Shown here: positions 11,919-63,740 of the stretch, piece after piece
Position numbering within the stretch: position 1 is the stretch's first letter
Layout: every line of letters starts with the position of its first letter
Source of the DNA: an uncultured delta proteobacterium
GTDB taxonomy: Bacteria; Desulfobacterota; Syntrophobacteria; BM002
DNA length: 64,000 nt
Assembly (NCBI GenBank): GCA_963712115.1
Contig: CAVQGX010000039.1
Span: 88 to 64,087 of the forward strand
Direction: 5' to 3'
Position numbers and translations under genes: made by a program
The notes under the pieces: model-generated
Told to the model about the DNA's origin: nothing
Databases searched by the model: none
Seen by the model: only the letters and a program-made list of their open reading frames with translations

Positions 11919-11995
11919 TGGTCGGGACGACTGGATTCGAACCAGCGACTTCTGCGTCCCGAACGCAGCGCTCTACCAGGCTGAGCCACGTCCCG
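11919..11995 (-). tRNA. tRNA-Pro(CGG): tRNA-Pro (anticodon CGG), CCA encoded
   Basis: The reverse complement reads CGGGACGTGGCTCAGCCTGGTAGAGCGCTGCGTTCGGGACGCAGAAGTCGCTGGTTCGAATCCAGTCGTCCCGACCA. It has a 7-bp acceptor stem, anticodon stem CTGCG/CGCAG with loop TTCGGGA, and a GGTTCGAATCC T-arm. Confidence 0.9.
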
Positions 11996-48224: not shown

Positions 48225-49100
48225 TTACCACTTGCTGATCTTTTTTACCAGTGCGAGGACGCTCTTTTCCGGTCTGAAGCTGAGTTCTTGACATGGGACC
48301 TGAGCTGCTAGCTGGCTGAAGAACTCCAGAACAAATTGCATCCCTTGGAAGTCCCACAGGGGGGGAAAGGAACAGGTGAGGAGGTGCGATACCGGATCGA
48401 GCCCTTTCATATCTTTGACCGAATTCTCCTGTCCATGGCTCAGGAAGAAAATTCTTTCTAACTTGGCTTCCCGAGGCGAACCGAATGCGGCCTCGCCATG
48501 CCAGGGCGTGCCGTAAATCCTGAACTCACGACCCTGTTTTCGCACAATAACTCTGTCGTCGCTGAGTATATCAACACCATTTTCTTGAGCCCACATCCTC
48601 GCCAGCGTGCTTTTACCAGCCCCGGATTCCCCCAAAAAAAGGATTCCTCTATCCTCAATTACGATGCCGCAGGCGTGAAGGATGACTCCCCTTTCCTGTG
48701 CCAGGTAATGGATGAGCAAAAGTTCCATAGTGGGACCAAAGAAGGGGTCGATGAAGCGGATACAGTTGTCGGCAAAGTAAAGGTCAGCGTGTTTGAGATG
48801 GTGCGGCAAAAAGAGGGTTCTCTGGAGGTCAGCCATTTCCGGGAAAAGTCTGATCAATGACGTACCGTTTTCACGGTACAGAGTCCAGATCGGGGGGGAC
48901 TCGAAAACTTTTTCTCCAACCACCATGTCAGGGATCCCGAGGTGCAGTTGAAGGCTGATGTCGGTTTTTCCTCGGGCGACAAAGGGAAGATAGGCCGGCG
49001 CTATTTCCCCAAAGACTTTTCCTGCAATGGAAATAGCCACGTCTCCAATTCTGATGGCCACGTTTTTTTGCGACATAAGCATTAAGGTTAAGTGAACCAC
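48225..49100 (-). CDS. HPr-kinase-like P-loop protein (RiPP cassette A)
   Basis: 291 aa. ILHACGIVIEDRGILFLGESGAGKSTLA resembles the HprK/P C-terminal domain P-loop (GxSGxGKS). It is a paralogue of 57928..58854. Confidence 0.7.
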   Translation of the reverse strand: MVHLTLMLMSQKNVAIRIGDVAISIAGKVFGEIAPAYLPFVARGKTDISLQLHLGIPDMVVGEKVFESPPIWTLYRENGTSLIRLFPEMADLQRTLFLPHHLKHADLYFADNCIRFIDPFFGPTMELLLIHYLAQERGVILHACGIVIEDRGILFLGESGAGKSTLARMWAQENGVDILSDDRVIVRKQGREFRIYGTPWHGEAAFGSPREAKLERIFFLSHGQENSVKDMKGLDPVSHLLTCSFPPLWDFQGMQFVLEFFSQLAAQVPCQELSFRPEKSVLALVKKISKW

Positions 49101-49172: not shown

Positions 49173-49682
49173 TTAATTGCCCCCCTTTACAAAAGGGGGA
49201 CTTTTATGATCCAGTTCCCGTAAAAACCTCTGAAAAACACTCCTCTTCAACCGAGCAAGCCACAGGTAAAGCATGCTCCACAGTCTGACTCTCCAGCGGT
49301 AAGGGTCGATGGTGCGATGACCTCGCTCCAGCCAAACAACCTTGCCCAGGACCTGTTGCGCTTCCACCGGGCAATCGCAGGTCGTGGAAGCGTCCCCCCG
49401 CAGGATAAAGGTGAGTCCAGAACCGTTTCTTTCCTCTATATTCACTATGCGATGGGCAATCAAACCGCTCTGAAGGCGAAAGAGAATAATGTCTTTCTTT
49501 TTGAGCTTGGCTGGCGCTGCAGGCTCAACCGTGATCACGTCACCATGGCGAATGGTGGGATGCATGCTTGTTCCAGGGGCTCGGAAACGCACTCCTAAGC
49601 CGAGGCTCAACACCTCACCACTCAATTGACCAAAACTCGGCGATGAGATCCGAGTTTTCAATGCAAGGTCCGCCTTATTCAC
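49173..49682 (-). CDS. SipW/archaeal-type S26 signal-peptidase-like protein without a membrane anchor (cassette A)
   Basis: GTG start. GTSMHPTIRHGDV (Ser box), IAHRIV (His box) and RGDAS..CD (the GDN-type box). No N-terminal hydrophobic helix is evident. Confidence 0.7.
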   Translation of the reverse strand: MNKADLALKTRISSPSFGQLSGEVLSLGLGVRFRAPGTSMHPTIRHGDVITVEPAAPAKLKKKDIILFRLQSGLIAHRIVNIEERNGSGLTFILRGDASTTCDCPVEAQQVLGKVVWLERGHRTIDPYRWRVRLWSMLYLWLARLKRSVFQRFLRELDHKSPPFVKGGN

Positions 49683-49703: not shown

Positions 49704-49868
49704 TCAAGAGCCTGGGCCGGAGCAGGGTGAGGCCGGCAGACCGCATTCAGCGCCGTCAGGGCCGAGACTTCCAGAGCTTTTGCAAAAGGCCAGGACGGCA
49801 CACTTGGCGTCTAGACTCACCCGCTTAACTTCAGGCTTCTTATATTCTTTCTTCTTACTTTTCTCCAA
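49704..49868 (-). CDS. Candidate RiPP precursor peptide A (54 aa, TTG start), not in the ORF track
   Basis: My translation of the minus strand is (M/L)EKSKKKEYKKPEVKRVSLDAKCAVLAFCKSSGSLGPDGAECGLPASPCSGPGS-stop. An in-frame TAA lies 4 codons upstream. AAGGA sits 6 nt before the TTG. The ORF ends 21 bp before the S26-like gene. The leader EYKKPEVKRVSL parallels KYEKPLIIPFNSL of precursor B, and both cores have 4 Cys. Confidence 0.55.
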   Translation of the reverse strand: MEKSKKKEYKKPEVKRVSLDAKCAVLAFCKSSGSLGPDGAECGLPASPCSGPGS

Positions 49869-50151
49869 GGTTTTTCCTTACAAAAGTTAGAACCAAGTTT
49901 CGCTTGCGATTTGAAGGCTCCTACCTCTTACAATAAATGACAGCGCTACGCTGTCATTTATTGTAAGAGGTAGGGGTCAGGGGTCGGGAGTCAGGGATCA
50001 GTATAAAAATAGTTCCTAAGTATTAAATAATTTTATAATTTTTATACAAAGTTTTACCTCTGCAGGTTGTGCTGTTTGGGGCTAGGATTTGCTTGACACA
50101 CTTGAATGAAGTATTTACTATGGATTAAAGTAAACACTTGGAGGAAACAAA

Positions 50152-50415
50152 ATGGGAATAGTGACGGCCAAACAACTGAAACAAAGAACAGGTGAAATCA
50201 TTAAGCGACTAAAATCAGGTGAAAGCTTCACCCTGACACACCGAGGTAAACCCGTTGCAGTTATTAACCCTTCTTTATCAGAAGAGGAAAGAATCTCTCC
50301 GGGCTTGAGATCATTCGAGGAAGCGTGGGAGGATATTGAAAGACAGTTGGAGAAAACTAAACCTCCATTCAAGAGCTGGAAGGAGGCAACCAGGTGGGCT
50401 CGAAATCGGGTGTAG
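50152..50415 (+). CDS. Phd/YefM-type antitoxin
   Basis: MGIVTAKQLKQRTGEIIKRLKSGESFTLTHRGKPVAVINP is the typical Phd/YefM N-terminal fold. It overlaps the downstream PIN gene. Confidence 0.7.
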   Translation: MGIVTAKQLKQRTGEIIKRLKSGESFTLTHRGKPVAVINPSLSEEERISPGLRSFEEAWEDIERQLEKTKPPFKSWKEATRWARNRV

Positions 50416-50846
50416 TTTTAATTGATACTAATATTTTTGTCATAGACCTGCGATACAGCAGGGATATTCACTATAACGAGAATCTTGCATTTCTCAATGT
50501 CGTAGCTGAAAAGGGAGTAGGTTTTACGACTATTGTTAATCTGTTGGAGCTTTGCGGAATTCTTTCGTTCAATCTCAACGAAAAGCAATTGCTCGAACTG
50601 TGGTTCTATTTTCAGGATAAATACAAGGTGACTGTACTCCCCACCCCTGACCTCACGAGTAATTTTCCCACCATAGGAATTCAAGAGCTATTCGATGTTT
50701 TACAAAATCGGGCTTCACTTGGTGATGCCTTGATGATCACTGTTGCGGCAAAGTATTTACCTTTCATTACCACACTGGTCACTTGGGATGATGAACACTT
50801 CAAAGGTAAATTCCCTGGTAATGTCATGACTCCAGAGGAATACTAG
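50394..50846 (+). CDS. vapC: PIN-domain toxin (VapC-like)
   Basis: VVLIDTNIFV carries the first acidic residue, and the size and the overlap with the antitoxin gene fit the family. Confidence 0.65.
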   Translation: MGSKSGVVLIDTNIFVIDLRYSRDIHYNENLAFLNVVAEKGVGFTTIVNLLELCGILSFNLNEKQLLELWFYFQDKYKVTVLPTPDLTSNFPTIGIQELFDVLQNRASLGDALMITVAAKYLPFITTLVTWDDEHFKGKFPGNVMTPEEY

Positions 50847-51218
50847 ACCCCAGGTCCCACCGGTCTGTGATCTGCTTCGCCGGGATCTGGCGCACAGCTC
50901 TTGTTTGATCTACAGCTAATTGGTGTCCATCTGGAAACTACCCAGTGTTATTCTCAGCCCTTCGGCAAGACCTGCCGACGAACTCAGGTCGAGTCGCTCA
51001 GGGCAGGCTCCGAGAAGAGACGCTCTGTCATCCTGAAGCCTTCGGCAAGCTCAGAGCCTGCCCTGAGCCTGTCGAAGGGATAGACTCCGCGAAGGATCTT
51101 GAGATTCTTCGTCGTCCCGCATAAGCAGGACTCCTCAGAATGACAATCCAAAAGAGGTGTCTCCCGATGGAGACAAACTAGTTTGAGGAACGGCCTTCTT
51201 TATGCTAGGTTGTTTCGC

Positions 51219-51680
51219 ATGAAGGTTCTGTCAAGGAAAAAGTTGGATCAGAAAGAGAAAGATCTCTTGATTTCGCAGCTCAGGGAGTTGCTTTCGGGAA
51301 AAGAACCTGTTTTGTTTGCCTATCTTTATGGGTCTTTCTTAGGGGAGGGATTTTTCCAGGATATCGACGTAGCAGTGTACTTTGATTCGCCTGCCTTCAA
51401 GGATAGTAGCGACATGTTGAATTACTCCCTCGCCTTGAGTGCAGAGTGCGATATGGCCACCACTGGTGTGACCTTCGATCTCAGGCCTCTCAATTTGGCT
51501 CCCCTTCCATTCAGGTTCGACGTCGTGACCCAAGGGCGAGTCCTTTACACTAGGGATGAAGAGCTTCGGGTTGATTTTGAGGCGCGCACTCGAAGCCTCT
51601 ACTTCGACTTTTTACCCCATCTGAGGTTTTACTTTAGGAACATCGTCTTAGGAGAATCGGATGAACGACTTGGAGAATAG
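51219..51680 (+). CDS. mntA: MntA-type minimal nucleotidyltransferase antitoxin
   Basis: LFAYLYGSFLGEGFFQDIDVAVYF (GSx10-11DxD motif). The likely ATG is at 51219. Confidence 0.7.
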   Translation: MKVLSRKKLDQKEKDLLISQLRELLSGKEPVLFAYLYGSFLGEGFFQDIDVAVYFDSPAFKDSSDMLNYSLALSAECDMATTGVTFDLRPLNLAPLPFRFDVVTQGRVLYTRDEELRVDFEARTRSLYFDFLPHLRFYFRNIVLGESDERLGE

Positions 51681-52095
51681 TGTTCTGAACCGCCTATTCA
51701 CAGAGATGGATGAATCCCTCCGTAAGCTTATAAGTCTTTCGAAGCTTTCAGAAGATGAATTCCTAAGCCACTATGAAAAGATCGATACCTCCAAATATAA
51801 TTTCATTGTAGCTATTGAAGCCATAATAGACATCTGCAATCGAATCATTTTAAAGCGAAAACTTGGCTTTCCACAGGACTATTCCGATGTCATCAAGCTT
51901 ATGAGTCAGCAAGGGGTGTTGGAAGGGGATCTGGTCGGGCGGTTGTTGGAGATGGTCAAGTTCAGAAACATGCTGGTCCATCTTTACTGGAAAATAGAAA
52001 ATGACAGGCTATACAAGTATTTAAAGGAAAACCTCGGCGATTTTGAAGCATTCAAAGAGGCTATCAGGAAGTACCTCAAGAAAAGTTCATCATAA
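51661..52095 (+). CDS. hepT: HepT (DUF86) RNase toxin
   Basis: FRNMLVHLYW matches the Rx4HxY catalytic motif. The gene overlaps mntA by 20 nt. Confidence 0.75.
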   Translation: MNDLENSVLNRLFTEMDESLRKLISLSKLSEDEFLSHYEKIDTSKYNFIVAIEAIIDICNRIILKRKLGFPQDYSDVIKLMSQQGVLEGDLVGRLLEMVKFRNMLVHLYWKIENDRLYKYLKENLGDFEAFKEAIRKYLKKSSS

Positions 52096-52176: not shown

Positions 52177-53313
52177 TCAAGGGAGGCGGGTTTTAAAGAG
52201 GAGTTCTACAGTATTCGCAATCGCCATGGGGGGAACGGTCAGGCCGAGGGCATGTGCCCGGAGATGGGCTACGCGGCAGAGAAAATCCACGGGCTCTTCC
52301 GGATCTTTGTTCTCTAACTCGCCATTGGCCGGGCACATGCCACACATTGCCTTGATCGCACAGGCAAAACACTTGGTCTGCCTGGTGATCTTTTTCTGCC
52401 GGATCTCCGAGATAAAGTCTTCCCAGCCATCTCGGAAACTGCCTTGTCGCAGGTCGTAGGTGTCATTGGCAGACATCCCGCACAGACTGAGGTTTCCTGA
52501 AGGATCAATGGCAAAGGAGCCCACCCCACCACCGCACTGATAGAGATCATCGGAATGGTTTGGGTCTAAACGAGGTGCTGCATAGCGCTCACAGAACCGG
52601 TCCCACTCTGCCAACCGTTCAGAGTCCTGCACATCGAGCTCCACCACCTCTTCCGGTGTGAGCCTGAGGGCTAGAGGAACCTGAGAGCCGTCAAGCCGCG
52701 GGTTGATCATGGCATCGAACCTGAATTCCAAGCCCAGGTCCTCCTCCACAAACCGCTTCATCTCCCAAATCTCATGCCTGTTTAAGGTCATGGTAACGGT
52801 CTTGAGCTTCACGGGCATCCCACGCTCCATGAGCAACCTAATCCCTCGCAGGCAGCAGTCGAAAGAACCTGGTTTGCCGGTTATCTTTTCGTAGGTCTTC
52901 TTGGTGTGCCCGTACAGAATAATTTCAATGTAATGAGGCGGGTACTCGGCTAGAGAATCTGCAATCTTTTCATTGATCAGGATTGCATTGGTAAACAGGG
53001 TGATGAGTAACCCTTTCTGCTTTGCGTACTTGTAGATAACAATGAAGTCCGGTCTGGCGAAGATCTCCCCGCCCGTGTACAGGAGCCAGAAGCAGCCCAA
53101 CTCCACAATCTCATCCAAAATACGACAGTGCTCGTCGTAGGAAAGTTCGCGGTCAAGGGCCTGTTGATTCGCTATGGGCAGATTGTTGTAACAGTGGGCA
53201 CATGCCAATGGACAGCGACGGGTTACCTCAATGGTCCCCCGTAAGGGGATGCGCTTGCCTGAAACCCGGTGGGAGACGCCAAGGGCAAAGTCCTCATAGC
53301 TAACCGTTTCCAT
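52177..53313 (-). CDS. Radical SAM/SPASM peptide maturase (cassette A)
   Basis: The cluster motif is RRCPLACAHC (CxxxCxxC). The C-terminal SPASM cysteines are CGGGVGSFAIDPSGNLSLCG and CFACAIKAMCGMCPA. Confidence 0.85.
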   Translation of the reverse strand: METVSYEDFALGVSHRVSGKRIPLRGTIEVTRRCPLACAHCYNNLPIANQQALDRELSYDEHCRILDEIVELGCFWLLYTGGEIFARPDFIVIYKYAKQKGLLITLFTNAILINEKIADSLAEYPPHYIEIILYGHTKKTYEKITGKPGSFDCCLRGIRLLMERGMPVKLKTVTMTLNRHEIWEMKRFVEEDLGLEFRFDAMINPRLDGSQVPLALRLTPEEVVELDVQDSERLAEWDRFCERYAAPRLDPNHSDDLYQCGGGVGSFAIDPSGNLSLCGMSANDTYDLRQGSFRDGWEDFISEIRQKKITRQTKCFACAIKAMCGMCPANGELENKDPEEPVDFLCRVAHLRAHALGLTVPPMAIANTVELLFKTRLP

Positions 53314-53549: not shown

Positions 53550-53849
53550 TCAAGTTGCTCCAGACGGCTTGATCAGTCCGGAACCTTCGAGAGATCGGAG
53601 GAAATCCAAAAGGTCTTTTTCCGCCTCCACGGCCCCAACATCGTACTCGTTTTTCACAGCTTCCATTAGCTGCCGAACGGTTTTCTGCCCGTCGATGAGT
53701 TGCCAGATCATGGCGCCCACTTCACTAAGGGTAAAAACTCCCTCCAGATCACCCACGTGACCCTTGATGGGCACAATAATTATCTCACCAGCAACATCTC
53801 TGGTAACGAGTTCCTTCTCTTTGGCAAAACACGTGTCTAAAGTGTTCAT
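53550..53849 (-). CDS. PqqD-family peptide chaperone (RRE), cassette A
   Basis: 99 aa. ...EIIIVPI...VFTLSEVGAMIWQLIDGQKTVRQLMEAVKNEYDV..AEKDLLDFLRSLEGSGLI is the canonical PqqD pattern. Confidence 0.85.
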   Translation of the reverse strand: MNTLDTCFAKEKELVTRDVAGEIIIVPIKGHVGDLEGVFTLSEVGAMIWQLIDGQKTVRQLMEAVKNEYDVGAVEAEKDLLDFLRSLEGSGLIKPSGAT

Positions 53850-53891
53850 GTGAATTCTCCAGGGAGCGATTTTAAATACATCTTATTTTTT

Positions 53892-54012
53892 CCCCTCCCC
53901 TGGCGGGAGGGGATAAAGGGGGGTCTGAACCTGGTACATAGGTTACCCATGTCCGTGGTTGCACGGGGAGGGGGTCACCCCCACCCATACCCTCCCCCGT
54001 CAAGGGGGAGGA
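53892..54012. repeat. GC-rich palindromic REP cluster (CCCCTCCCCTGGCGGGAGGGG / CCCTCCCCCGTCAAGGGGGAGG units)
   Basis: It contains hairpin units plus GGTCTGAACCTGGTACATAGGTTACCCATGTCCGTGGTTGCACGGGGAGGGGG. An inverted copy lies at 54611..54762. Confidence 0.8.
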
Positions 54013-54610
54013 GATTTTAGTATTTCCGGATGGGCACTAACTTTCCACAAGCTTTGTTTCCTCATAGACTCCTGCAATTCTTGGGCCGAGACGTTTCACT
54101 GTCATTTGCCTTCGGCGTCATTGGGTCATTACGCTGCGCTGTCATTGGTTGTAATAGGTAGGAGCCTTCAAGTCGCAAGCGAAGCTTGCTCCTACACGAC
54201 ATTGTAAAGCTAAGATTTCTTGCTGCCAGTTGCTAGCTGTCAGCTGCCTGCTGAATACAACCGGCAAAACGGACTTAACTGGCTTAAAAGTCTTAGGGCA
54301 GCGGGCAGGGGACCACTAGGCACTACACAGAGGGAGTAAGTGTTAAGTAGTTGAGAATAACTCAATTTTGATTGTCTTTCCTTACTGGCTCCTGGCTCCT
54401 GACTCCTGGCTCCTTGTCCCAAGGGTTGTAATTGCGGATATTATCGTTTATAGATCTCTAAATTTTTATTATTTGCAATCATGGGAGCACAAACTGAGAG
54501 TGCCAATGCAGCCTCTTTCGGCCCCGATGTCCGACCTTCTGTTTTTATCCTGTCTTTTCCACTTCGAGCGCAAGCACCATCCCGAGAGGCTTTCCGATAA
54601 CCTTATAGAT

Positions 54611-54762
54611 CCCTCCCCCTTGACGGGGGAGGGTTAGGGTGGGGGTGAAAAATAAATGTATTTCCAGTTATTTTATATCCCCCCTCCCCGTGCAACCACG
54701 GACATGGGTAACCTATGTACCAGGTTCAGACCCCCCTTTATCCCCTCCCGCTAGGGGAGGGG
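54611..54762. repeat. Inverted copy of the GC-rich REP cluster
   Basis: It contains the exact reverse complement of the 53925-53975 segment (CCCCCCTCCCCGTGCAACCACGGACATGGGTAACCTATGTACCAGGTTCAGACC), with a ~30-bp AT-rich insertion. Confidence 0.8.
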
Positions 54763-54911
54763 AAGGGGGTTGTCGGACAGCCTCTCCCGTTTGTTTTCGT
54801 AAGAAAGAGATGCAAAACCAACGGCACGAAGTTTGCTTGAAGTTTATAGGATTGGAGTATTGGAGTATTGGAGTATTGGAGCAGCAAATTGTTTGAAGGG
54901 GAGGTTATCCC

Positions 54912-55199
54912 GTGATGCAAACTGAAAATCCCATAGCCAATCCTCTGATCGTACTTCGGGAGGAGTTTGATGACTGGGCTATACTTTTTGATCCTGATAC
55001 CGGTGATGCCTTCGGCCTCAATCCCATAGGCGTGCACATCTGGAAGCGATTGGATGGTAATCATTCAGTCAAAGACATCTTGCAAGATCTGCAAGAGGGT
55101 TATGAAGATGTGCCGGACGAGGCAGAGGGTGATCTCCAAGAGTTCATTGAGGATTTGGTCCAGCGTGGACTAGCAGGATACGAGATTCAGAAGGATTGA
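54912..55199 (+). CDS. PqqD-family peptide chaperone (RRE), cassette B
   Basis: 95 aa. ...WAILFDPDTGDAFGLNPIGVHIWKRLDGNHSVKDILQDLQEGYEDVPDEAEGDLQEFIEDLVQRGL. GGGGAGG lies upstream of the GTG-ATG start. Confidence 0.85.
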   Translation: MMQTENPIANPLIVLREEFDDWAILFDPDTGDAFGLNPIGVHIWKRLDGNHSVKDILQDLQEGYEDVPDEAEGDLQEFIEDLVQRGLAGYEIQKD

Positions 55200-55206
55200 T
55201 CCGATC

Positions 55207-56310
55207 ATGCAATTAATGAAAACCCCCAGATCTGTGGATCTGGCTATAACCGCCCGATGCAATCTGCGGTGTACTTACTGCAGCCATTTCACCGGTGCGG
55301 GCGACGTGGGTCAGGATCTCCCCAAGGAAGAATGGCTCCAATTTTTCGAGGAATTGAATCGCTGTGCAGTCATGAATGTGACAATCGGGGGAGGAGAGCC
55401 TTTTTGTCGGAAAGATTTACGCGAGCTCATTGAGGGGATTGTCGGCAACCGGATGCGGTTCAATATTCTAAGCAATGGAACATTGATTAATGATGAGATG
55501 GCAGCTTTTCTGGCTTCGACCGGACGCTGTGACGGGGTACAGGTCTCCCTTGATGGCTCGGTTCCGATGACTCATGATGCTTGCAGGGGAGAGGGGAATT
55601 TCATAAGAGCCATGGAGGGCATCAAGTCCCTCCAGAAATATGGCGTTCCTGTTCCCGTCCGGGTGACAATTCACAAATATAACGTAAGGGATCTTGAAAA
55701 TGTTGCCAAACTTCTATTGGAGGACATTGGTCTTCCAAGCTTATCCACCAACGCTGCCTCATATATGGGTCTCTGCCGGCAAAATACTGAACAGATCCAA
55801 CTCACTGCTGAAGAACGCTCCCTGGCCATGGAAACCCTTCTAGAACTCGACAAAAAATACAATGGCCGCATCAGCGCTTCCGCCGGTCCTTTGGCTGAGG
55901 CAGGAAATTGGCTCGAGATGGAAAAGGCTTGTCAGGAAGAGGAAGAAGGTATCCCGGGACGGGGCTATCTTACCAGTTGCAATGGACCCATGAGTCAAAT
56001 CGCCGTGCGTGCTGATGGGGTCATGGTGCCATGCATTCAAATGAGCCATATAGAGTTGGGTCGGATCAACAGAGATGATCTTAAGGAGATCTGGCAGGAA
56101 AATCGTGAACTGAAAAGACTGAGGGAGAGGCATAAAATTGCATTGAGCGAATTCGAGTTTTGTCAGGGGTGTGATTACATCAACTACTGTACCGGTAACT
56201 GTCCTGCTCTGGCCTATACGATTCTAGATAAAGAGAATCATCCGAGCCCGGACGCCTGTCTGAAGCGATTCCTGGAGGCAGGGGGAAGGCTACCGGAGGG
56301 GATTTTTTAA
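55207..56310 (+). CDS. Radical SAM/SPASM peptide maturase 1 (cassette B)
   Basis: ARCNLRCTYC (CxxxCxxC). The SPASM region is CNGPMSQIAVRADGVMVPC and CQGCDYINYCTGNCPA. Confidence 0.85.
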   Translation: MQLMKTPRSVDLAITARCNLRCTYCSHFTGAGDVGQDLPKEEWLQFFEELNRCAVMNVTIGGGEPFCRKDLRELIEGIVGNRMRFNILSNGTLINDEMAAFLASTGRCDGVQVSLDGSVPMTHDACRGEGNFIRAMEGIKSLQKYGVPVPVRVTIHKYNVRDLENVAKLLLEDIGLPSLSTNAASYMGLCRQNTEQIQLTAEERSLAMETLLELDKKYNGRISASAGPLAEAGNWLEMEKACQEEEEGIPGRGYLTSCNGPMSQIAVRADGVMVPCIQMSHIELGRINRDDLKEIWQENRELKRLRERHKIALSEFEFCQGCDYINYCTGNCPALAYTILDKENHPSPDACLKRFLEAGGRLPEGIF

Positions 56311-56336
56311 CCGCAGAGAGCGCAGAGAGCGCAGAG

Positions 56337-57494
56337 ATGTCAAAGTCAAGTGTTGAAAAAATGAAAGAAGAACGAGAAAGGCGCAAATACCCATTGAATC
56401 AGATTTATTTTTATCTGACTGAGGGGTGTAACCTTCGGTGCCGGCATTGCTGGATTGCGCCTAAATATCAGAGCGAGGATAACTCCTATCCAGCGCTGAA
56501 CCTGGATCTTTTCAAGTCGATTATTGAACAGGCCAAACCCTTGGGTCTAACCGGGGTCAAATTGACAGGTGGTGAGCCGTTACTCCACCCTCAGATTCAC
56601 GAGATTTTGGGGCTTATTCAGAAGGAAGACCTCAGCCTTAATGTTGAAACCAATGGAATTCTGTGCACGCCCGAGCTAGCAAGCAAGATGGCTACTTGCA
56701 AAAAACCCTTTGTTTCAGTGAGCTTGGATGGTGCAGACTCAGGGACCCACGAGTGGGTGCGGGGCGTCACGGGCTGTTTTGAGGCTGCTTTGAAAGGCAT
56801 TCAAAATCTCGTCGAAGCAGGCTTGAGACCCCAAGTGATCATGTCCATCATGCGCCATAACAAAGAGCAGATGAAGCAGGTCGTAAGGCTTGCTGAGCGC
56901 TTGGGTGCCGGGTCGGTCAAGTTCAATATCGTGCAACCGACCGCCAGGGGAGAAAGAATGCATGACTCTGGCGAAGTCCTTAGCATTAGAGAGCTTGTGG
57001 AACTGGGAGGATGGGTGGAGAATACTCTTTCGGCCTCAACGTCCTTGCGTCTTTACCACAGTCATCCTATTGCTTTTCGCCCCCTTGGGAAGATGTTTGG
57101 CAACAATGGTGACGGGTGCGGGACCTGTGGAATTCTAGGTATCCTGGGCGTTCTGGCCAACGGCTCTTATGCTCTATGCGGCATAGGGGAAACGGTACCC
57201 GATCTTGTCTTCGGGCGTGCAGCCACGGATCTTCTAGAAGATATCTGGACTAAGACACCCATCCTCTTGGAGCTTCGCGAGGGACTTCCTCAGCGCTTTG
57301 AGGGGGCGTGCGGCAGTTGTCTCATGAAACACATTTGTTCGGGCAACTGTGTTGCCCAGAATTACTACCTCAGCAAGAATATATGGGCGCCATACTGGTA
57401 CTGTGAGGAAGCGCATAATCAAGGGCTTTTTCCTGAGGCTCGTATGCTTCCGGAAGGGACCAAAAGGAATCATAGGGATTATGATATGGGTTGA
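56337..57494 (+). CDS. Radical SAM/SPASM peptide maturase 2 (cassette B)
   Basis: EGCNLRCRHC. The SPASM region is CGTCGILGILGVLANGSYALCG and CGSCLMKHICSGNCVA. Confidence 0.85.
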   Translation: MSKSSVEKMKEERERRKYPLNQIYFYLTEGCNLRCRHCWIAPKYQSEDNSYPALNLDLFKSIIEQAKPLGLTGVKLTGGEPLLHPQIHEILGLIQKEDLSLNVETNGILCTPELASKMATCKKPFVSVSLDGADSGTHEWVRGVTGCFEAALKGIQNLVEAGLRPQVIMSIMRHNKEQMKQVVRLAERLGAGSVKFNIVQPTARGERMHDSGEVLSIRELVELGGWVENTLSASTSLRLYHSHPIAFRPLGKMFGNNGDGCGTCGILGILGVLANGSYALCGIGETVPDLVFGRAATDLLEDIWTKTPILLELREGLPQRFEGACGSCLMKHICSGNCVAQNYYLSKNIWAPYWYCEEAHNQGLFPEARMLPEGTKRNHRDYDMG

Positions 57495-57583
57495 GTCCCC
57501 AAGGCCTCAAGCGTGATAAGAGGATAGAGAGCCTTGGAGAATAAATCAAAGATTGAAGGTTTAAACCCTAGGAGGAAGCTATT

Positions 57584-57772
57584 ATGTCTCCTAAATATGA
57601 GAAACCATTAATTATCCCGTTCAACTCCCTTAAAGATGAAACTGGGCTCGGGCTTTGCAAGCCGCTTGGTTCAACAGATGCCGGGCAGTGTAGAACTGGT
57701 AGTACGGCAACACCGGGTGCATGCAAAAATGGTAGTACTGCAGGCGGTTGCAATAGCGGTAGTTCTCCATAG
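57584..57772 (+). CDS. Candidate RiPP precursor peptide B (62 aa)
   Basis: MSPKYEKPLIIPFNSLKDETGLGLCKPLGSTDAGQCRTGSTATPGACKNGSTAGGCNSGSSP. There are four C-x2-3-G-S-[TS] repeats, with Cys at 25, 36, 47 and 56. A strong AGGAGG lies 8 nt upstream of the ATG. The gene sits between the maturases and the kinase-like gene. Confidence 0.7.
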   Translation: MSPKYEKPLIIPFNSLKDETGLGLCKPLGSTDAGQCRTGSTATPGACKNGSTAGGCNSGSSP

Positions 57773-57927
57773 GCAGTTGCGCTAATGGAAGATTCGTGTC
57801 TGGTTCTTGGGCGGCATAGGGCTCGTGGTAAAGTTCCCTGATACTTTGGGAATGAAAGAGTTTTTTTGATACATGGAAGCACTTTGAATTAACTATCATC
57901 TGGTTTTAGAGTATTAAAAGTTGTCAA

Positions 57928-58854
57928 ATGACTACAATCGAAACACCACTAAAAGGTAACATAGGATATTCTTTGCGTTTGGCCAATGGCCAGTCGTGGC
58001 ACATCATAGCCACAGATGGGGTAAAGCCGTGGGTAGCGAAGCTAGCCTCAGTAATGGAACTTAAACCGTGGGATGGGAATGGTTATCAAAAGTTGATCTT
58101 CATGCGGAGAGGGACAGACAAGAAAAGTTGGCGGAAGTCTGGATCCTCTCTGCCCCCAGAGATTCAAAAGAATCTTCATGAGAGCAATGGCGAGGTTCGT
58201 GGATCTCCTGTCATCCAAACCTGGTCCCACTATGGCACCCAAGACGTCTTCTGCGAGATTGGAGATGAGCAGGGTTACGAGCGGGATATTGCCGGGATGT
58301 TGGTGGCAATTTATCCTATTTTTGAAAGGGCGCAAAACTCGGGTGGACTCGCCTTGCATGCTGCTATGCTTGAACGGGATGGGATCGGAGTTTTATTGGC
58401 AGCTCCAGGAAATACGGGAAAATCGACCTGTTGCCTTAGACTTGGCAGCCCGTGGAGGTCCCTTTGCGATGACGAGACCCTGGTCGTACGGGATCATCAG
58501 CAACAATATCTGGCACACCCTTTCCCAACTTGGAGCGATTACCTCTTGAAACGCTACAAACGCACATGGAACACTGAATATCATATTCCGTTAACCGCGA
58601 TATTCTTTATAGAACAGGCTATGCATGACGAGGTGCTTCCCATTGGGCAGGGGGAAGCAGCGGTATCCATCCACCATTCAGCGATGCAGATGTGTCGTCG
58701 CAGATTGTACCATCTGGGTCGCAAAGAGTCTAAGTCTTTAAAACTGAAGCTGTTTGATAACGCCTGCGAAATCGCCAAAGCTATCCCGGCTTTTAAGCTA
58801 AAAGTGAGCTTAAAAGGACGGTTTTGGGAGAAGATTGAAGCGGTTTTGCCATAG
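57928..58854 (+). CDS. HPr-kinase-like P-loop protein (cassette B; possibly ScmC-like)
   Basis: 308 aa. ALHAAMLERDGIGVLLAAPGNTGKSTCC resembles the HprK/P P-loop region. It is a paralogue of 48225..49100. Confidence 0.65.
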   Translation: MTTIETPLKGNIGYSLRLANGQSWHIIATDGVKPWVAKLASVMELKPWDGNGYQKLIFMRRGTDKKSWRKSGSSLPPEIQKNLHESNGEVRGSPVIQTWSHYGTQDVFCEIGDEQGYERDIAGMLVAIYPIFERAQNSGGLALHAAMLERDGIGVLLAAPGNTGKSTCCLRLGSPWRSLCDDETLVVRDHQQQYLAHPFPTWSDYLLKRYKRTWNTEYHIPLTAIFFIEQAMHDEVLPIGQGEAAVSIHHSAMQMCRRRLYHLGRKESKSLKLKLFDNACEIAKAIPAFKLKVSLKGRFWEKIEAVLP

Positions 58855-58871
58855 ATAACCAAAGAGAAGAA

Positions 58872-59513
58872 GTGGAAGAGACGCAACCAATAAAACCAAT
58901 AGAGTTAGGTTCAATAAATTACATTGGCCCCAGCATGAATCCAATTCTTAAAGCTGGAGATGTTCTCCGAATTGTGTCTTATGAGGGGCAAGAAATCCGA
59001 CGGGGAGATGTGATTGTTTTTGTTGCTCCCGGAGGTGATTTTAAGGTCATTCACCGCGTAGTAGCCCTAGATTCGCAAGGAATTAGAACCCGAGGTGATA
59101 ACTCCACTGATGTCGACCCGTGGATCCTTAAACCAGATCAAGTCCTTGGTCGTGTAGTTTGCGCCCGAAGGCGGAATAAAAGGCTGAGAGTATTTGGAGG
59201 GCCAAAGGGGAGCTTGGTTGCTACAGTCATCAGAACCATTAACTGGATCGATTCGAGCGTGTCGAAGTTGCTGCGGCCACCATGTAAACGACTGGCCAGG
59301 ATAGGTTTATTCAAGCAGCTGTTGCCCGAGAGTGTGGAACTACAAGTTGTTTCGTTTAGCCGACCGTCAGGAACAGAGCTGCAACTGCTCATTGGGGGAC
59401 GCGTGATAGGCAGATGGCCAGCGGGAAAAAGTGGATGGAACATCCGGCGCCCTTTTCGGCTTTTTGTGGATGAAAATTCTCTGCCCGAAAATCCGTCTAA
59501 ATTGGGGCAATGA
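58872..59513 (+). CDS. SipW/archaeal-type S26 signal-peptidase-like protein without a membrane anchor (cassette B)
   Basis: GTG start. GPSMNPILKAGDV, VIHRVV and TRGDNSTDVD. No N-terminal TM helix is evident. Confidence 0.7.
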   Translation: MEETQPIKPIELGSINYIGPSMNPILKAGDVLRIVSYEGQEIRRGDVIVFVAPGGDFKVIHRVVALDSQGIRTRGDNSTDVDPWILKPDQVLGRVVCARRRNKRLRVFGGPKGSLVATVIRTINWIDSSVSKLLRPPCKRLARIGLFKQLLPESVELQVVSFSRPSGTELQLLIGGRVIGRWPAGKSGWNIRRPFRLFVDENSLPENPSKLGQ

Positions 59514-59580
59514 AGGTATAAGTCAAGTGGTGTGAGTGGTTGACATTGGTAATCTAAAATTTTCCGAGGAACTTAGATAG

Positions 59581-60120
59581 ATGGCTAGGACAAATGACAT
59601 AGAAAAAAGACTGTTAAAGGATATGCAGTTGGCGAAAAGAAAGTTTGAATGTTATGAAAAAATGTATATTGGTTTGAGTGGAGACGGAAAGAAATATCTT
59701 CAAGCACAATCTAGACGATATAAACGGAAAGTATCTGAGATACAAAAAATTATTCTCCCTGCTTTAAATGATATTTGTCCTACATGTATTAACTGTTGTA
59801 AATTATATACTCCAGAATTATCTATATATATTGCAGGTAGTATAGGTTGTTTTCAGTTTATAGATTATGTATTGGTAAGATGTAATAATATATTACCAAA
59901 TCCTTATTTTGAAAATATTAAGCATAATCTATGTCCATTTTGGGCTGAGGGTTGCATTCTACCAAGCGATTCTAGAAGCTATCTATGCACCAAATATTTT
60001 TGCGATAAACTCAAAAAAGAACTTGATATGAGAGTTATCTCAGAACACTTGGAAGTTTTGAAATCTATCATAAAGGATTTTTCAATTAAAAAGTGTTTGG
60101 ACTTGAATCCAGAAGCTTAA
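59581..60120 (+). CDS. YkgJ-family CxxCxxCC cysteine-cluster protein
   Basis: 179 aa. CPTCINCC is the CxxCxxCC signature of the putative Zn/Fe-chelating domain, and further Cys residues follow (CPFWAEGC, CTKYFC). The gene is markedly AT-rich compared with its neighbours. Confidence 0.55.
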   Translation: MARTNDIEKRLLKDMQLAKRKFECYEKMYIGLSGDGKKYLQAQSRRYKRKVSEIQKIILPALNDICPTCINCCKLYTPELSIYIAGSIGCFQFIDYVLVRCNNILPNPYFENIKHNLCPFWAEGCILPSDSRSYLCTKYFCDKLKKELDMRVISEHLEVLKSIIKDFSIKKCLDLNPEA

Positions 60121-60153
60121 TGTAAAAATGTAGATCAAGTATGTTATTTACCA

Positions 60154-61458
60154 ATGATTAGAGACAATAAGTATACTATGGATCGATTCACTTGTATAAA
60201 TCCGTCGACAGCATTGGCGCCAGAAAAGGCCATCCAAGAAATATATCCTGGTCTGAGGTTATGTGGAACCTCAGATAAATATTTTCTTGATCTTTCAGAT
60301 GAACTGTTGACCTATGTAAGGTCAGTTTTGAAAGATGAATCCCCCCAAGCTCCGGGGGCATCGTTAGATGAATGGTCCGGGCTGCTAAATTTCCTCCGAT
60401 CTAACTGGATAATCCCTTTTGTTTATCGAAAAATTGGCTCTTTGCCGCCGGAATGTCGCCCACCGGAACCGATCACCGATGAAATGAGACAGGATTTTCT
60501 CGTCAGTGTTGTACGTTCTCTTCACATGGAGAGGCAGCTCCAGGAAATTATCGAAGCGTTCCTGCAACAAGGTGTTCGAGTGCTGGTTTTGCGGGGACCT
60601 GCCCTGGCATTTTCACTGTATACAGATCCGGCGATGAGGTCCAGCTGTGATCTTGACCTGTTGGTGATTCCGGAGCAAGTGGTTCAGGCGCGAGATATTC
60701 TGGAAAGCTTGGGCTACAGATGTTTGGCCAGAAGGTTCGAAACCGCCAGGGACTTTTTCCGCGAGGAGTGCTTTGTCCATCAAGGAAATCAGGGTAACAA
60801 GTTTCCGGTTGATCTCCACTGGGTCCACTGGGAACTACACCCCTTTTTTAAGGGCAGTGAAGAGGTTGACATAGAGGATCTTTTTCAGAGGGGTTGGAAG
60901 GTTGAGACCCCAACTCTCGCTTTCGAAACCCTGCACCCAGTAGACTATCTCATTCATTCGGCAATTCACTTAGTAATGATCCATAAAAATGAAATGCGGT
61001 TAAGTTGGATTTATGACACGGCATTGCTTGCCCAACAACTTCAAGTGGACAATGACTGGGCAACATTGCAGGAGAGGAGCGTCGCCTGGAGGGCTCGGCT
61101 ACCATTAGAACATTGCCTGAAAATGGCTCAAGTTTGGGCTGGGCTCGAGCTACCGGACGGATTCGATGACTTTTCCACCTGGCCACGACCCACAGAGGAC
61201 GAGTCTGCTGTTTGGGCAGATACCATGCGGCACCATTGGGTGACTATATTGTTGAAACGGTCGCTGGCGAATCCCTCCCTTCTTCTAAAGAGGGTTCCGT
61301 CTTTGCTCCGTTTGCTCTTCCCACATCCTGAAATTGTGCGATTTTGCTACCCGACCTCCAGTAATTGGCTGCTGCCGTTCTCTTATGTGAGAAGGTGGTT
61401 TAGATGGATTGATGATCTGGTTATTAATAGGATTGGTGCGTTGAAACAAAAATCTTGA
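60154..61458 (+). CDS. Nucleotidyltransferase family protein (uncharacterised NTP_transf_5-like type)
   Basis: 434 aa. VLVLRGPALAFSLYTDPAMRSSCDLDLLV resembles the KG..Y......R...DiDlLV signature of this family. Confidence 0.55.
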   Translation: MIRDNKYTMDRFTCINPSTALAPEKAIQEIYPGLRLCGTSDKYFLDLSDELLTYVRSVLKDESPQAPGASLDEWSGLLNFLRSNWIIPFVYRKIGSLPPECRPPEPITDEMRQDFLVSVVRSLHMERQLQEIIEAFLQQGVRVLVLRGPALAFSLYTDPAMRSSCDLDLLVIPEQVVQARDILESLGYRCLARRFETARDFFREECFVHQGNQGNKFPVDLHWVHWELHPFFKGSEEVDIEDLFQRGWKVETPTLAFETLHPVDYLIHSAIHLVMIHKNEMRLSWIYDTALLAQQLQVDNDWATLQERSVAWRARLPLEHCLKMAQVWAGLELPDGFDDFSTWPRPTEDESAVWADTMRHHWVTILLKRSLANPSLLLKRVPSLLRLLFPHPEIVRFCYPTSSNWLLPFSYVRRWFRWIDDLVINRIGALKQKS

Positions 61459-61485: not shown

Positions 61486-61626
61486 CTCACCCCCACCCCG
61501 CCCGCCTCGCCTGAGCGAGAGCGATGGCGGGCAGGCCTAACCCTCCCCCGTCGAGGGGGAGGGAACGTTTTGTGCACGCTATGATTCCCCCTCCCCTGGC
61601 GGGAGGGGGTTAGGGGGAGGGGGAAG
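61486..61626. repeat. GC-rich palindromic REP cluster
   Basis: Contains CCCCGCCCGCCTCGCCTGAGCGAGAGCGATGGCGGGCAGGCC, CCCTCCCCCGTCGAGGGGGAGGG and CCCCCTCCCCTGGCGGGAGGGGG. Confidence 0.8.
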
Positions 61627-61656: not shown

Positions 61657-63513
61657 GTGAAGAACAGCTGGTGGACATATTTAAAATCAGGGCTTTCGCG
61701 AAAGTTCCCGGAGGACCGTATTGGTGGTCAGGACAGCCACGGGTCTTTAAAGACCAGCCTTGAGAACCTCCACCCTTTTATCGGCCTCCATTGGCGCAAG
61801 GGCGCAGTGGGTGTCCTCGTCATCATGGTCAGCTCTTTTCTCGGCATCCCTCAACCACTCATCATGCGTTATCTGGTTGACGATGTGATCCTAAGTCGTG
61901 AGCTGGGGTTCCTGGCAGTAGCCATTCTCCTGCTGGCCGGAATCTCCCTGGCGGAGAAACTAACAGGCCTCTTGCAGCAATTCTATTTTGCTCGCTTTGA
62001 GCAGGAGGTTACCCTCGACATCCAACAAGATCTTTTCAGCCATGTCCTGCGCTTTCCCAAGGCTTTCTTCGATGAAAAACAGACAGGCTACTTGATTTCC
62101 CGTCTCTCCTCCGACGTGGAGGGGCTGCGCTGGTTTTTTTCAAGCACAATTGCTTACATAATCAGTAATCTCCTGCGATTTGCCGGTGGAGTGGTTTTGC
62201 TTTTCTACCTGGAATGGAGACTTGCCCTTGGTGTCCTTTTAATCGTCCCCGGCCTGGTGCTTTGTATAAAGTACTTCTCAAGGAAAGTTCACGTCCTCAG
62301 CCACCAGGATATGGAACAACAGGCCAATGTCACGAGTAATTTGCAAGAGTCACTTTCTTCGGTATCCTTGATCAAGGCCTTCTCCACCGAAGCGCGCACG
62401 GTCAAACGTTTCACCTCCCAACTGAAAGAGGCATTTCAGATTTCACTTGAGCAAACCACGGTAAGTTCCGTTGCCAATCTAGTAATCAATTCTATGCCAG
62501 GAATGGCAAAGGTCACTGTACTGGCCTTGGGGGCTTACTGGGTGATTCAGGGCCATTGGAGTCTGGGTTCTTTACTGGCTTTTATAGCCTACCTGGCCTA
62601 TGTATTTGGCCCGGCTCAGTTTCTGGCCAGTGCTAACCTGCAATTACAAAATGCACGAGCGGCACTGGAACGAGTTTCGGCTCTCTACGACATCATCCCA
62701 GAAGAGAATGTTGGCGCTGGTGAAAAAACAGAAAGGCTAAGAGGGGAGATTGATTTCAACAACGTCTCATTCTCCTACGACGAGCGTGAGCCGGTGCTCA
62801 ACAATATCTCCTTCCGCATTCAACCCGGAGAACGGGTAGCCATTGTGGGGCCCAGCGGCGAGGGTAAAACAACCCTGTTGAGCCTTATCCTCCGTTTCTA
62901 CAAACCCAGTGCAGGAGAAATCTGCTTTGATGGGAGGCCGGCAGAGCACTATGAAGTGGGTTCACTGCGGAGACGGATCGGCTACGTGTCCCAGAGCGCA
63001 CTCCTTTTGGCCGGCACCATTAGGGAAAACCTCCGATACGGTAATCCTGAGGCTAGGGAGGAGGAGATTGTTCGAGCGGCTACTGTGGCGGATATCCATG
63101 ATTTTATCGTGAGCCTGGCGGGAGGATATGAGACCGAAATTGGTGAAAAGGGAGTTAAACTCTCGGAAGGACAGAAACAGCGGCTGTCCCTTGCCCGGGC
63201 AATAGTCAAAGATCCGGACATTCTGGTACTGGATGAGCCCACTTCTGCCCTGGATAGCCAGACGGAAAAGACTATTTTCCAGTCTCTCCCATCTATTATC
63301 AAGAACAAGACCCTCTTCGTGGTGGCTCACCGCCTTTCTACTATCATGAATTCCGATCGCATCTTCCTTTTAGATCAGAACCGCCTCATTGCCATTGGCA
63401 CCCATGAGTCACTTTTGCAGAGCAATGATTACTATCGTTCCATAGTTTCCCACCAGCAGGTCCAGCCGGAACAGGATTCTACAGATACTAGGCGGTATTA
63501 TAGGGTTGTCTAG
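61657..63513 (+). CDS. ABC exporter, fused permease/ATPase (MsbA-like type I exporter)
   Basis: Six-TM N-terminal half. Walker A GPSGEGKTT, signature LSEGQKQRL and Walker B ILVLDEPTSALD. No N-terminal C39 peptidase domain is present. Confidence 0.9.
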   Translation: MKNSWWTYLKSGLSRKFPEDRIGGQDSHGSLKTSLENLHPFIGLHWRKGAVGVLVIMVSSFLGIPQPLIMRYLVDDVILSRELGFLAVAILLLAGISLAEKLTGLLQQFYFARFEQEVTLDIQQDLFSHVLRFPKAFFDEKQTGYLISRLSSDVEGLRWFFSSTIAYIISNLLRFAGGVVLLFYLEWRLALGVLLIVPGLVLCIKYFSRKVHVLSHQDMEQQANVTSNLQESLSSVSLIKAFSTEARTVKRFTSQLKEAFQISLEQTTVSSVANLVINSMPGMAKVTVLALGAYWVIQGHWSLGSLLAFIAYLAYVFGPAQFLASANLQLQNARAALERVSALYDIIPEENVGAGEKTERLRGEIDFNNVSFSYDEREPVLNNISFRIQPGERVAIVGPSGEGKTTLLSLILRFYKPSAGEICFDGRPAEHYEVGSLRRRIGYVSQSALLLAGTIRENLRYGNPEAREEEIVRAATVADIHDFIVSLAGGYETEIGEKGVKLSEGQKQRLSLARAIVKDPDILVLDEPTSALDSQTEKTIFQSLPSIIKNKTLFVVAHRLSTIMNSDRIFLLDQNRLIAIGTHESLLQSNDYYRSIVSHQQVQPEQDSTDTRRYYRVV

Positions 63514-63540: not shown

Positions 63541-63740
63541 CCCCCCAAAGAGGCCTGTCCGACAATCCCTTTCCCCTCCCCTGGCGGGAGGGGATAAAGG
63601 GGAGGGGGACACACCCCCACCCTAACCCTCCCCCGTCAAGGGGGAAGGGATTATAAGGTTATCGGACAGCCTCTAAAGGGGGATTTAGGCCTGCCCGCCA
63701 TCGGCTTCGCCTTCAGGCGAGGCGGGCGGGGGGATTTTGA
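63541..63740. repeat. GC-rich palindromic REP cluster (same units; part is inverted relative to 61486..61626)
   Basis: Contains CCCCTCCCCTGGCGGGAGGGG and CCCTCCCCCGTCAAGGGGGAAGGG. GGCCTGCCCGCCATCGGCTTCGCCTTCAGGCGAGGCGGGCGGGG is the inverse of the 61493-61545 unit. Confidence 0.8.

Follow-up and report, generated by a model that had tools for sequence, protein, structure and literature searches.

A probable ScmA-type peptide precursor gene with four cysteine repeats in a SynChlorMet cassette of an uncultured delta proteobacterium

The DNA analysed here is a stretch of 64,000 nucleotides (nt) of contig CAVQGX010000039.1 (positions 88 to 64,087, assembly GCA_963712115.1) from an uncultured delta proteobacterium, and we call the whole of it the window. 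At 57584..57772 on the forward strand lies a small open reading frame (ORF) that runs from ATG to TAG and encodes 62 amino acids (aa) plus stop, MSPKYEKPLIIPFNSLKDETGLGLCKPLGSTDAGQCRTGSTATPGACKNGSTAGGCNSGSSP. It stands between ScmF and ScmC in a complete SynChlorMet (SCM) cassette, in which ScmD, ScmE, ScmF, ScmA, ScmC, an S26 peptidase, an NTP_transf_5 protein and an ABC exporter follow one another, and it is very probably a genuine ScmA-type precursor gene. An earlier reading of the same letters, made without database searches (the sequence-only reading), had recognized a precursor-type gene here; the ORF, the peptide sequence and the Cys spacing that it gave were all read back exactly, but it missed that the peptide type is already catalogued as the ScmA of the SynChlorMet cassette.

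The four Cys of the peptide are residues 25, 36, 47 and 56 (spacings 11, 11 and 9), and each of them opens a C-x2-3-G-S-[ST] motif, the Cys codons beginning at 57656, 57689, 57722 and 57749. Shuffling the 38-aa core 200,000 times with its composition preserved did not once produce four such matches. Residues 1–23 (MSPKYEKPLIIPFNSLKDETGLG, 57584..57652) are the probable leader, with a YxxPx[L/I] motif (Y5, P8, I10) and a C-terminal G-L-G, and residues 24–62 (57653..57769) the probable core, which has four repeat units with one Cys each and no aromatic residue. The Gly-Ser pair is encoded by GGTAGT in repeats 2–4 (at 57698, 57731 and 57758) and by GGTTCA in repeat 1. That GGTAGT is used in as many as three units suggests a recent duplication or conversion inside the gene, which may be the source of the unusually uniform G-S-[ST] in this allele. 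A Shine-Dalgarno sequence, AGGAGG, is read directly at 57570..57575 with an 8 nt spacer before the ATG, as the sequence-only reading had it, and GGAGGAA is kept at the same distance from the start in 7/7 homologous loci. A Pfam scan of the peptide gave no match, and no terminator or attenuator was called 3′ of the gene (fold z-score −0.2). A tblastn search of the window for a second copy found no true paralogue, only a different small ORF with a similar leader on the opposite strand (49704..49868), to which we return below.

Upstream on the same strand are ScmD, ScmE and ScmF. ScmD (54912..55199) is a PqqD-family peptide-binding protein, that is, a recognition element (RRE) for peptides that are ribosomally made and modified post-translationally (RiPPs); it scores 134.7 bits against TIGR04248 (cutoff 100) and E 4.3e-19 against PF05402, and has weak matches to lasso PqqD models. 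ScmE (55207..56310; TIGR04250, 645 bits, cutoff 400; Radical_SAM and SPASM Pfam domains) and ScmF (56337..57494; TIGR04251, 620 bits, cutoff 400) are radical S-adenosylmethionine (SAM)/SPASM enzymes, and they bear out the earlier statement that two SPASM enzymes are encoded nearby. ScmE has CNLRCTYC at residue 18 and a seven-Cys SPASM pattern, and ScmF has CNLRCRHC at residue 31 and a seven-Cys SPASM-type pattern; because the CxxxCxxC motifs begin at these positions, neither enzyme has an N-terminal peptide-binding (RRE) domain of its own. The nearest solved structure to ScmE is that of the sactisynthase SkfB (E 4e-21, over the radical-SAM core only), and those nearest to ScmF are BlsE, PqqE, SkfB and SuiB.

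Downstream, also on the forward strand, ScmC (57928..58854; TIGR04249, 312 bits, cutoff 125) is an HprK/PEPCK-fold P-loop protein and putative kinase. After it come a soluble S26-family (signal-peptidase-I-like) peptidase (58872..59513; TIGR02228, 54.3 bits, cutoff 51.85; PF10502), which has SMNP at residue 21, a match to the catalytic SMxP motif, and lacks a hydrophobic segment (Kyte-Doolittle maximum 1.36), and a 179-aa Cys-rich protein (CPTCINCC...; 59581..60120) with no Pfam or NCBIfam match. The last two genes encode an NTP_transf_5 nucleotidyltransferase-family protein (60154..61458; PF14907, E 7e-46), a candidate tailoring enzyme, and a fused permease/ATPase ABC transporter (61657..63513), a candidate exporter whose ABC ATPase motifs were read in the ORF translation.

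A search with aligned ScmC proteins led to 80 loci from species-representative genomes. Alongside ScmC (80) the genes counted there are the S26 peptidase (62), ScmF (55), ScmD (50), ScmE (48), the ABC transporter (34) and NTP_transf_5 (31), and homologues of the Cys-rich protein occupy the same position in just 2/80 (L011 and L019). The recurring order is D-E-F-(A)-C-peptidase, the S26 peptidase following ScmC in 62/80. An ScmA-like ORF fills 36 of the 44 gaps between adjacent ScmF and ScmC genes, so the precursor-type gene first proposed from the letters does have comparable ORFs in homologous loci. Among the eight remaining gaps, seven are shorter than 200 nt, with an ScmA-like ORF elsewhere in the locus in five of the seven cases (L027, L028, L036, L039 and L055), and the eighth contains masked sequence. 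As a small gene with a constant place between ScmF and ScmC, the ORF is conserved and looks translated. Seven variant loci (L005, L008, L052, L054, L067, L069 and L075) have ScmD and ScmC and no detectable ScmE or ScmF homologue within the 6-kilobase flanks; most of these also have no typical ScmA-like ORF 5′ of ScmC.

Five close protein homologues (53–85% identity) have near-identical leaders and share all four Cys. For comparison at the DNA level we used four of these five, together with two syntenic loci that are more distant. All 7/7 relatives have an open sense frame, the ATG is kept and the indels are whole codons. Substitutions in the leader fall most often on the third codon position (90, 77 and 157 at positions 1, 2 and 3), and the codons of the invariant Cys and Gly vary synonymously among relatives. 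The core is hypervariable, with 395 nonsynonymous and 136 synonymous codon differences over seven homologues; the leader has 118 and 91 in the same set.

The only NCBIfam match of the peptide is to TIGR04252 (ScmA), at E 1.8e-6 and 28.1 bits, over model positions 1–49 of 49. The curated cutoff of that model is 35 bits, and annotation pipelines would for that reason not name the peptide; its entry in the protein collection has no name attached. When a profile of the peptide was run with no word index on 1.84 billion cluster representatives, 148 of them matched at E ≤ 1e-3, nearly all of 50–130 aa, and TIGR04252 at the same threshold matches 46/143 of the profile-matched representatives. ScmA-like ORFs that lie beside a bona fide ScmC give anything from no hit to 19 bits in Chlorobium and Methanocella, and up to 27.5 bits when other genomes are included. 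The TIGR04252 model is thus narrow, and the sub-threshold score is owed to the model and not to the peptide.

In its other attributes the peptide agrees with ScmA. It lies in a cassette whose ScmC, ScmD, ScmE and ScmF all score above their cutoffs, and it is small, with a conserved leader (YxxP 17–22 residues before the first Cys) and a Cys repeat core of period 10–11. The cassette, the short leader and the C-x2-G repeats are those of ScmA as modelled in TIGR04252, which is matched end to end; the difference is that the present peptide belongs to a distinct leader subfamily, MSxKYEKPhhhP[FL], to which 40 of 145 representatives belong. Judged by context and architecture, it is best filed as a divergent ScmA that falls short of the model cutoff, and it is a new, unannotated member of a known family that is bioinformatically defined and experimentally uncharacterised. 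In the literature we could search, which largely excludes subscription journals, we found no paper on the SynChlorMet cassette, its TIGR accessions or the chemistry of its product, and the radical-SAM RiPP surveys that we checked do not mention the cassette. A pattern-based scan of a genome set of 185,579 species found ScmC relatives in 144 stretches; in metagenomes, too, such relatives are common. Their carriers are strict anaerobes, difficult to culture, among them Desulfobacterota, Chlorobiaceae, Methanocella, Methanothrix, Omnitrophota, Aminicenantes and anammox bacteria.

The register of leader and core was counted in 145 family representatives, which have 679 core Cys and 675 repeat units. 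Gly is at C+3 for 92% and at C+4 for 7% of the 679 Cys (98.5% for the two positions together), and Cys-Cys spacings peak at 10 (299 cases) and 11 (145 cases). The third residue after this Gly (G+3) is Ala in 58% and Pro in 13%, or one of the two in 71%. The residues between are more mixed: G+1 is Ser in 32%, Thr in 17%, Gly in 15%, Asn in 13% and Ala in 7%, and G+2 is Ser in 19%, Thr in 16% and Gly in 15%. Ser/Thr together make up 49% at G+1 and 35% at G+2, and occur at C+4 or C+5 in 442/675 units; 63/675 units have no Ser/Thr at all, and 28/675 have no Ser/Thr/Asn. Relatives have 2–14 repeats, and some loci hold several precursors.

The five closest homologues agree with these counts. Cys, Gly and the Ala at G+3 are invariant among them, and GST is replaced by GAT, GVT, GGT, GGQ, GTL, GIT, GGA or GNV. 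From these replacements together with the family counts we draw the register as C-x2-G-x2-[A/P]-x3-4 with a period of 10–11, in which Ser/Thr are common but dispensable; the fourfold G-S-[ST] is a peculiarity of this allele. The sequence-only reading had described a Cys...Ser/Thr periodicity and a C-x-x-G-S-T register. Such a periodicity is present in this peptide, with its four motifs, but is not conserved: when the homologues are aligned, Cys and Gly are kept and Ser/Thr vary. Its further suggestion that the Ser/Thr are crosslink partners or kinase targets fits poorly with their frequencies at G+1 and G+2 and with the units that have none. The leader is more constant, with Y5, E6, K7, P8, L9, I10, P12, F13, N14, T20, G21 and G23 invariant in close homologues. 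Over the family it consists of Y-x-x-P followed by hydrophobic residues (consensus KYEKPxL); among the representatives, Tyr lies 17–22 residues before the first Cys (mode 20), and two residues ahead of that Cys stands Gly in 50% of them and Ala in 16%.

Taken together, we read the ORF as encoding an ScmA-type RiPP precursor that is the substrate of the SynChlorMet cassette, its leader bound by ScmD and one radical-SAM crosslink made per repeat, and we give this reading as a whole a probability of roughly 70%. ScmD, a stand-alone PqqD/RRE protein, would bind leader residues 1–23 through Y5-x-x-P8-x-I10 and present the core to ScmE and ScmF, since neither of these has its own RRE domain in front of the radical-SAM motif. 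ScmE and ScmF would then make one Cys-sulfur crosslink in each 9–11-residue C-x2-3-G-x2-[A/P] unit, giving four small unnested rings. The partner of Cys could be the Gly alpha-carbon at +3/+4, which would make a sactionine such as that between Cys31 and Gly34 of streptosactin, or a carbon in the side chain at +4/+5, in which case the link would be ranthipeptide-like, as freyrasin has it.

For the modification, a Cys-derived thioether seems to us somewhat the better bet, because Cys and Gly are the sole near-invariant core residues, the core has no aromatics and the nearest solved relative of ScmE is SkfB; the lack of an aromatic residue also argues against C-C crosslinks of the Trp/Tyr type here. 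That it specifically joins Cys to the Gly alpha-carbon we propose much more tentatively, by analogy. Conservation favours chemistry at Gly, or at an alpha-carbon irrespective of position, over chemistry specific to Ser/Thr. The hypervariable core, the 2–14 repeats and the loci with several precursors point to a probably secreted product rather than a cofactor.

Among known peptides, the closest in spacing is streptosactin, a type II sactipeptide (GggA/GggB) likewise made by a SPASM enzyme, the unnested i to i+3 sactionines of which (Cys25-Ser28 and Cys31-Gly34, in Cys-x-x-Ser and Cys-x-x-Gly) match C-x-x-G, which of all spacings is the best conserved here (PMC8172795). Streptosactin differs in having just two rings and a single enzyme: the present peptide has four units (its relatives 2–14), and its cassette encodes two such enzymes as well as a separate PqqD protein, a kinase-like protein and a nucleotidyltransferase. 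The sactipeptides thuricin CD and ruminococcin C likewise have two radical-SAM enzymes encoded with Cys-containing precursors (PMC12093266, PMC8188230); their rings form nested hairpins with the Cys clustered at one end, whereas here the donors are spread evenly over tandem repeats. Sactipeptides are otherwise recognized by a maturase of a characterised sactisynthase family, and ScmE and ScmF score far below the StsB, SkfB and AlbA cutoffs.

Several points weigh against our reading, besides the family score that falls below its cutoff. The thioether is assigned by analogy and residue conservation, and the enzymes do not single it out: ScmE scores 85.5 bits against SkfB (cutoff 300), 76.7 against PapB (cutoff 340) and 91.5 against StsB (cutoff 625) among the thioether-synthase families, equally well or better against the WgkB, AhbD, MftC and PqqE families, and ScmF scores 92 bits against StsB and 76.8 against AlbA (cutoff 850). 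In the first repeat of this peptide Gly is at +4 and not +3, so a fixed ring size is not guaranteed, and 157/675 repeat units of relatives contain an aromatic residue. The putative kinase activity of ScmC is argued from fold and P-loop, and the sequence match of ScmC to the HprK P-loop region in the PDB is weak (E about 0.04). The residue on which lasso kinases act is, moreover, a C-terminal Ser; the last residue here is Pro, and just 22/145 relatives end in Ser. An assignment of the chemistry from enzyme similarity was considered and dropped, because the resemblances of both enzymes, in NCBIfam as in the PDB, are generic across SPASM families.

The alternative that survives best is the one that the sequence-only reading had raised, a ranthipeptide-type product in which the Cys sulfur is joined to the beta- or gamma-carbon of Ser/Thr/Asn at C+4/C+5 rather than to the alpha-carbon of Gly. 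G-S-[ST] is present in each of the four repeats here, the 442/675 family units counted above have Ser/Thr at C+4 or C+5 and Asn adds to these at G+1, and freyrasin (PapA/PapB) sets a precedent for repeated Cys-to-side-chain links with its six Cys-Asp links (PMC8172795). Like the SCIFF ranthipeptides, freyrasin has a repeated Cys motif that a SPASM enzyme converts ring by ring; however, its acceptor Asp is absent here, its leader differs and ScmE reaches the PapB family with only 76.7 of the required 340 bits. Neither a SCIFF precursor nor a PapB/CteB-family maturase was found, CteB (5wgg) matching ScmE at E 1e-6 only. Because G+1 is Gly or Ala in a sizeable share of units (15% and 7%), because some units lack Ser/Thr (63) or Ser/Thr/Asn (28) altogether and because the closest homologues swap GST for GGT, GGA, GVT or GNV, we regard this chemistry as rather unlikely.

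It is also conceivable, though improbable, that the Cys are not crosslink donors at all, and that the peptide binds a metal or cluster, acts in redox reactions or is a cofactor precursor, with the radical-SAM enzymes acting on other atoms (epimerisation, or Gly alpha-carbons). Regularly spaced Cys could bind metals, and some SPASM enzymes, such as PqqE and MftC, make cofactors and score about level with thioether synthases. Cofactor precursors, however, have conserved cores, and here the core is hypervariable with 2–14 repeats and multi-copy loci; a spacing of 10–11 is unlike CxxC-type metal sites, and secretion of the product is indicated by the exporter and the leader peptidase.

A lanthionine-like route, in which ScmC phosphorylates Ser/Thr, the phosphate is eliminated and Cys adds, while the radical-SAM enzymes act otherwise, could draw on the HprK/PEPCK-fold P-loop of ScmC, on the frequency of Ser/Thr beside the conserved Gly and on the joint duplication of ScmA and ScmC described below. 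We consider it very improbable: Ser/Thr are not conserved per repeat, two conserved SPASM enzymes would be left without a role, and the operon proteins scanned contain no lyase or cyclase domain, including none of the lanthipeptide dehydratase/cyclase types LanB/C, LanM, LanKC and LanL.

Finally, there is next to no chance that the region is non-coding or that the true coding sequence is one of the two longer ORFs listed on the opposite strand (57568..57882, 104 aa, and 57630..57899, 89 aa), since the first has stops in 3/7 and the second in 7/7 relatives while the sense frame, start and Shine-Dalgarno are kept in 7/7, the sense-peptide profile matches 148 cluster representatives, and a run of GGN, GCN, ACN and TGY codons is expected to leave the opposite strand open. 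The antisense ORFs were ruled out as real genes on these stops; they had already been taken for probable artefacts from the letters, and conservation follows the sense frame, the antisense frames being interrupted in relatives.

With the crosslinked ScmA product still the preferred reading, the rest of the cassette may be compared with that of phosphorylated and phosphoglycosylated lasso peptides (paeninodin, pseudomycoidin and the bsf cluster), which have in common with it a YxxPxL leader, a stand-alone PqqD/RRE protein, an HPr-kinase homologue, a nucleotidyltransferase and an ABC exporter (PMC10368454, PMC8498205). In lasso-peptide leaders YxxPxL, at −17 to −12, is the motif that the RRE recognizes (PMC10368454), and the present leader has Y5-E-K-P8-L-I10. 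In lasso clusters the HPr-kinase homologue requires the RRE for phosphorylation of the precursor, and the nucleotidyltransferase then adds hexoses (PMC10368454, PMC8498205); the same trio of RRE, kinase-like protein and nucleotidyltransferase is encoded in the SCM cassette. Lasso clusters also encode an asparagine-synthetase-like cyclase and a transglutaminase-like B2 protease, in place of which we find two SPASM enzymes and an S26 peptidase. NCBIfam and Pfam assign neither lasso function to any of the eight proteins from 54912 to 61458, a scan to which the ABC ORF at 61657–63513 did not belong, and because no cyclase or B2 protease was found the product is not a lasso peptide.

By this analogy, ScmC and the NTP_transf_5 protein may tailor the peptide, as in some lasso-peptide clusters. 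ScmC matches HprK_rel_A (E 1.5e-7) over residues 139–188. Its P-loop reads GNTGKS (residue 161) and is followed by CDDE at 180, and in HPr kinase the P-loop and the Asp-Asp region are what these two align with. Its AlphaFold2 model (predicted local distance difference test score, pLDDT, 77.7) has its best Foldseek matches to PEPCK (E 4e-8, template modelling (TM) score 0.44–0.49), and PEPCK and HPr kinase have a common nucleotide-binding fold. That ScmC phosphorylates the peptide is nevertheless a doubtful proposal, if one worth stating. In three loci, L028 (3035–9407), L059 (3090–7419) and L078 (5539–9824), the ScmA-like ORF and ScmC are duplicated jointly as modules; L028 has three ScmC and at least six precursors, and ScmD, ScmE and ScmF are single copy in loci with such duplications. 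Because ScmA-ScmC pairs duplicate in this manner, each ScmC is suggested to be matched to its own precursor.

Signal peptidase I follows a small-residue rule at −3 and −1. The G21-L-G23 of the leader fits this rule, and for that reason we propose that the soluble S26 peptidase, the candidate leader peptidase, would remove the leader after Gly23 (G-L-G / L-C). The ABC transporter would then export the product.

We also offer, as a possibility in which we have limited confidence, that the ScmA-type peptides of anaerobic bacteria and archaea make up an experimentally unexplored RiPP class, in which each 10–11-residue C-x2-G-x2-A unit would be closed into one small unnested thioether ring, giving a 'beads-on-a-string' poly-sactionine of 2–14 rings that may be further phosphorylated or nucleotidylated/glycosylated by a precursor-paired HprK-fold ScmC drawn from the lasso toolkit. 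The locus supplies a clean four-repeat precursor, a defined register, a predicted leader-recognition motif and cleavage site, and a complete co-linear operon. It is thus a compact start for heterologous reconstitution, which could reveal new radical-SAM peptide chemistry. The ScmA finding alone changes no established view, and it is a good lead even though the family is already catalogued in NCBIfam.

A second cassette lies in the window in divergent orientation, all of its ORFs being on the reverse strand (49704..49868, 49173..49682, 48225..49100, 52177..53313 and 53550..53849). The ORF at 49704..49868, which the tblastn search had brought up, encodes 54 aa, MEKSKKKEYKKPEVKRVSLDAKCAVLAFCKSSGSLGPDGAECGLPASPCSGPGS, with an ScmA-like YxxP leader, an irregular four-Cys core and no NCBIfam match. 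Next come an S24/S26-like peptidase ORF and one that has a GAGKST P-loop, and a single radical-SAM enzyme and a PqqD protein are encoded in the vicinity. A 59-nt element (extendable to about 75 nt) at 49888–49946 is 88% complementary to 54136–54194; one site is directly 5′ of the second small ORF and the other about 720 nt 5′ of ScmD. Given this complementarity, the element has the same orientation relative to each of the divergent cassettes, and it may be a shared promoter or regulatory leader. An Rfam scan found no family match for the element and, in the whole window, only a tRNA at 11922–11995.

GC-rich palindromic repeats (CCCCTCCCCTGGCGGGAGGGG...) occur at 53889–54040, 54585–54780, 61585–61624 and 63555–63676; they are intergenic and bracket the SCM operon, and one arm pair is 85 nt long and 99% complementary. 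Between the two cassettes, at 50152–50846 and 51183–52095, are two toxin-antitoxin-like gene pairs, recognized by eye from the translations, one a small antitoxin-like and a PIN-like ORF and the other a nucleotidyltransferase-like and a HEPN-like ORF.

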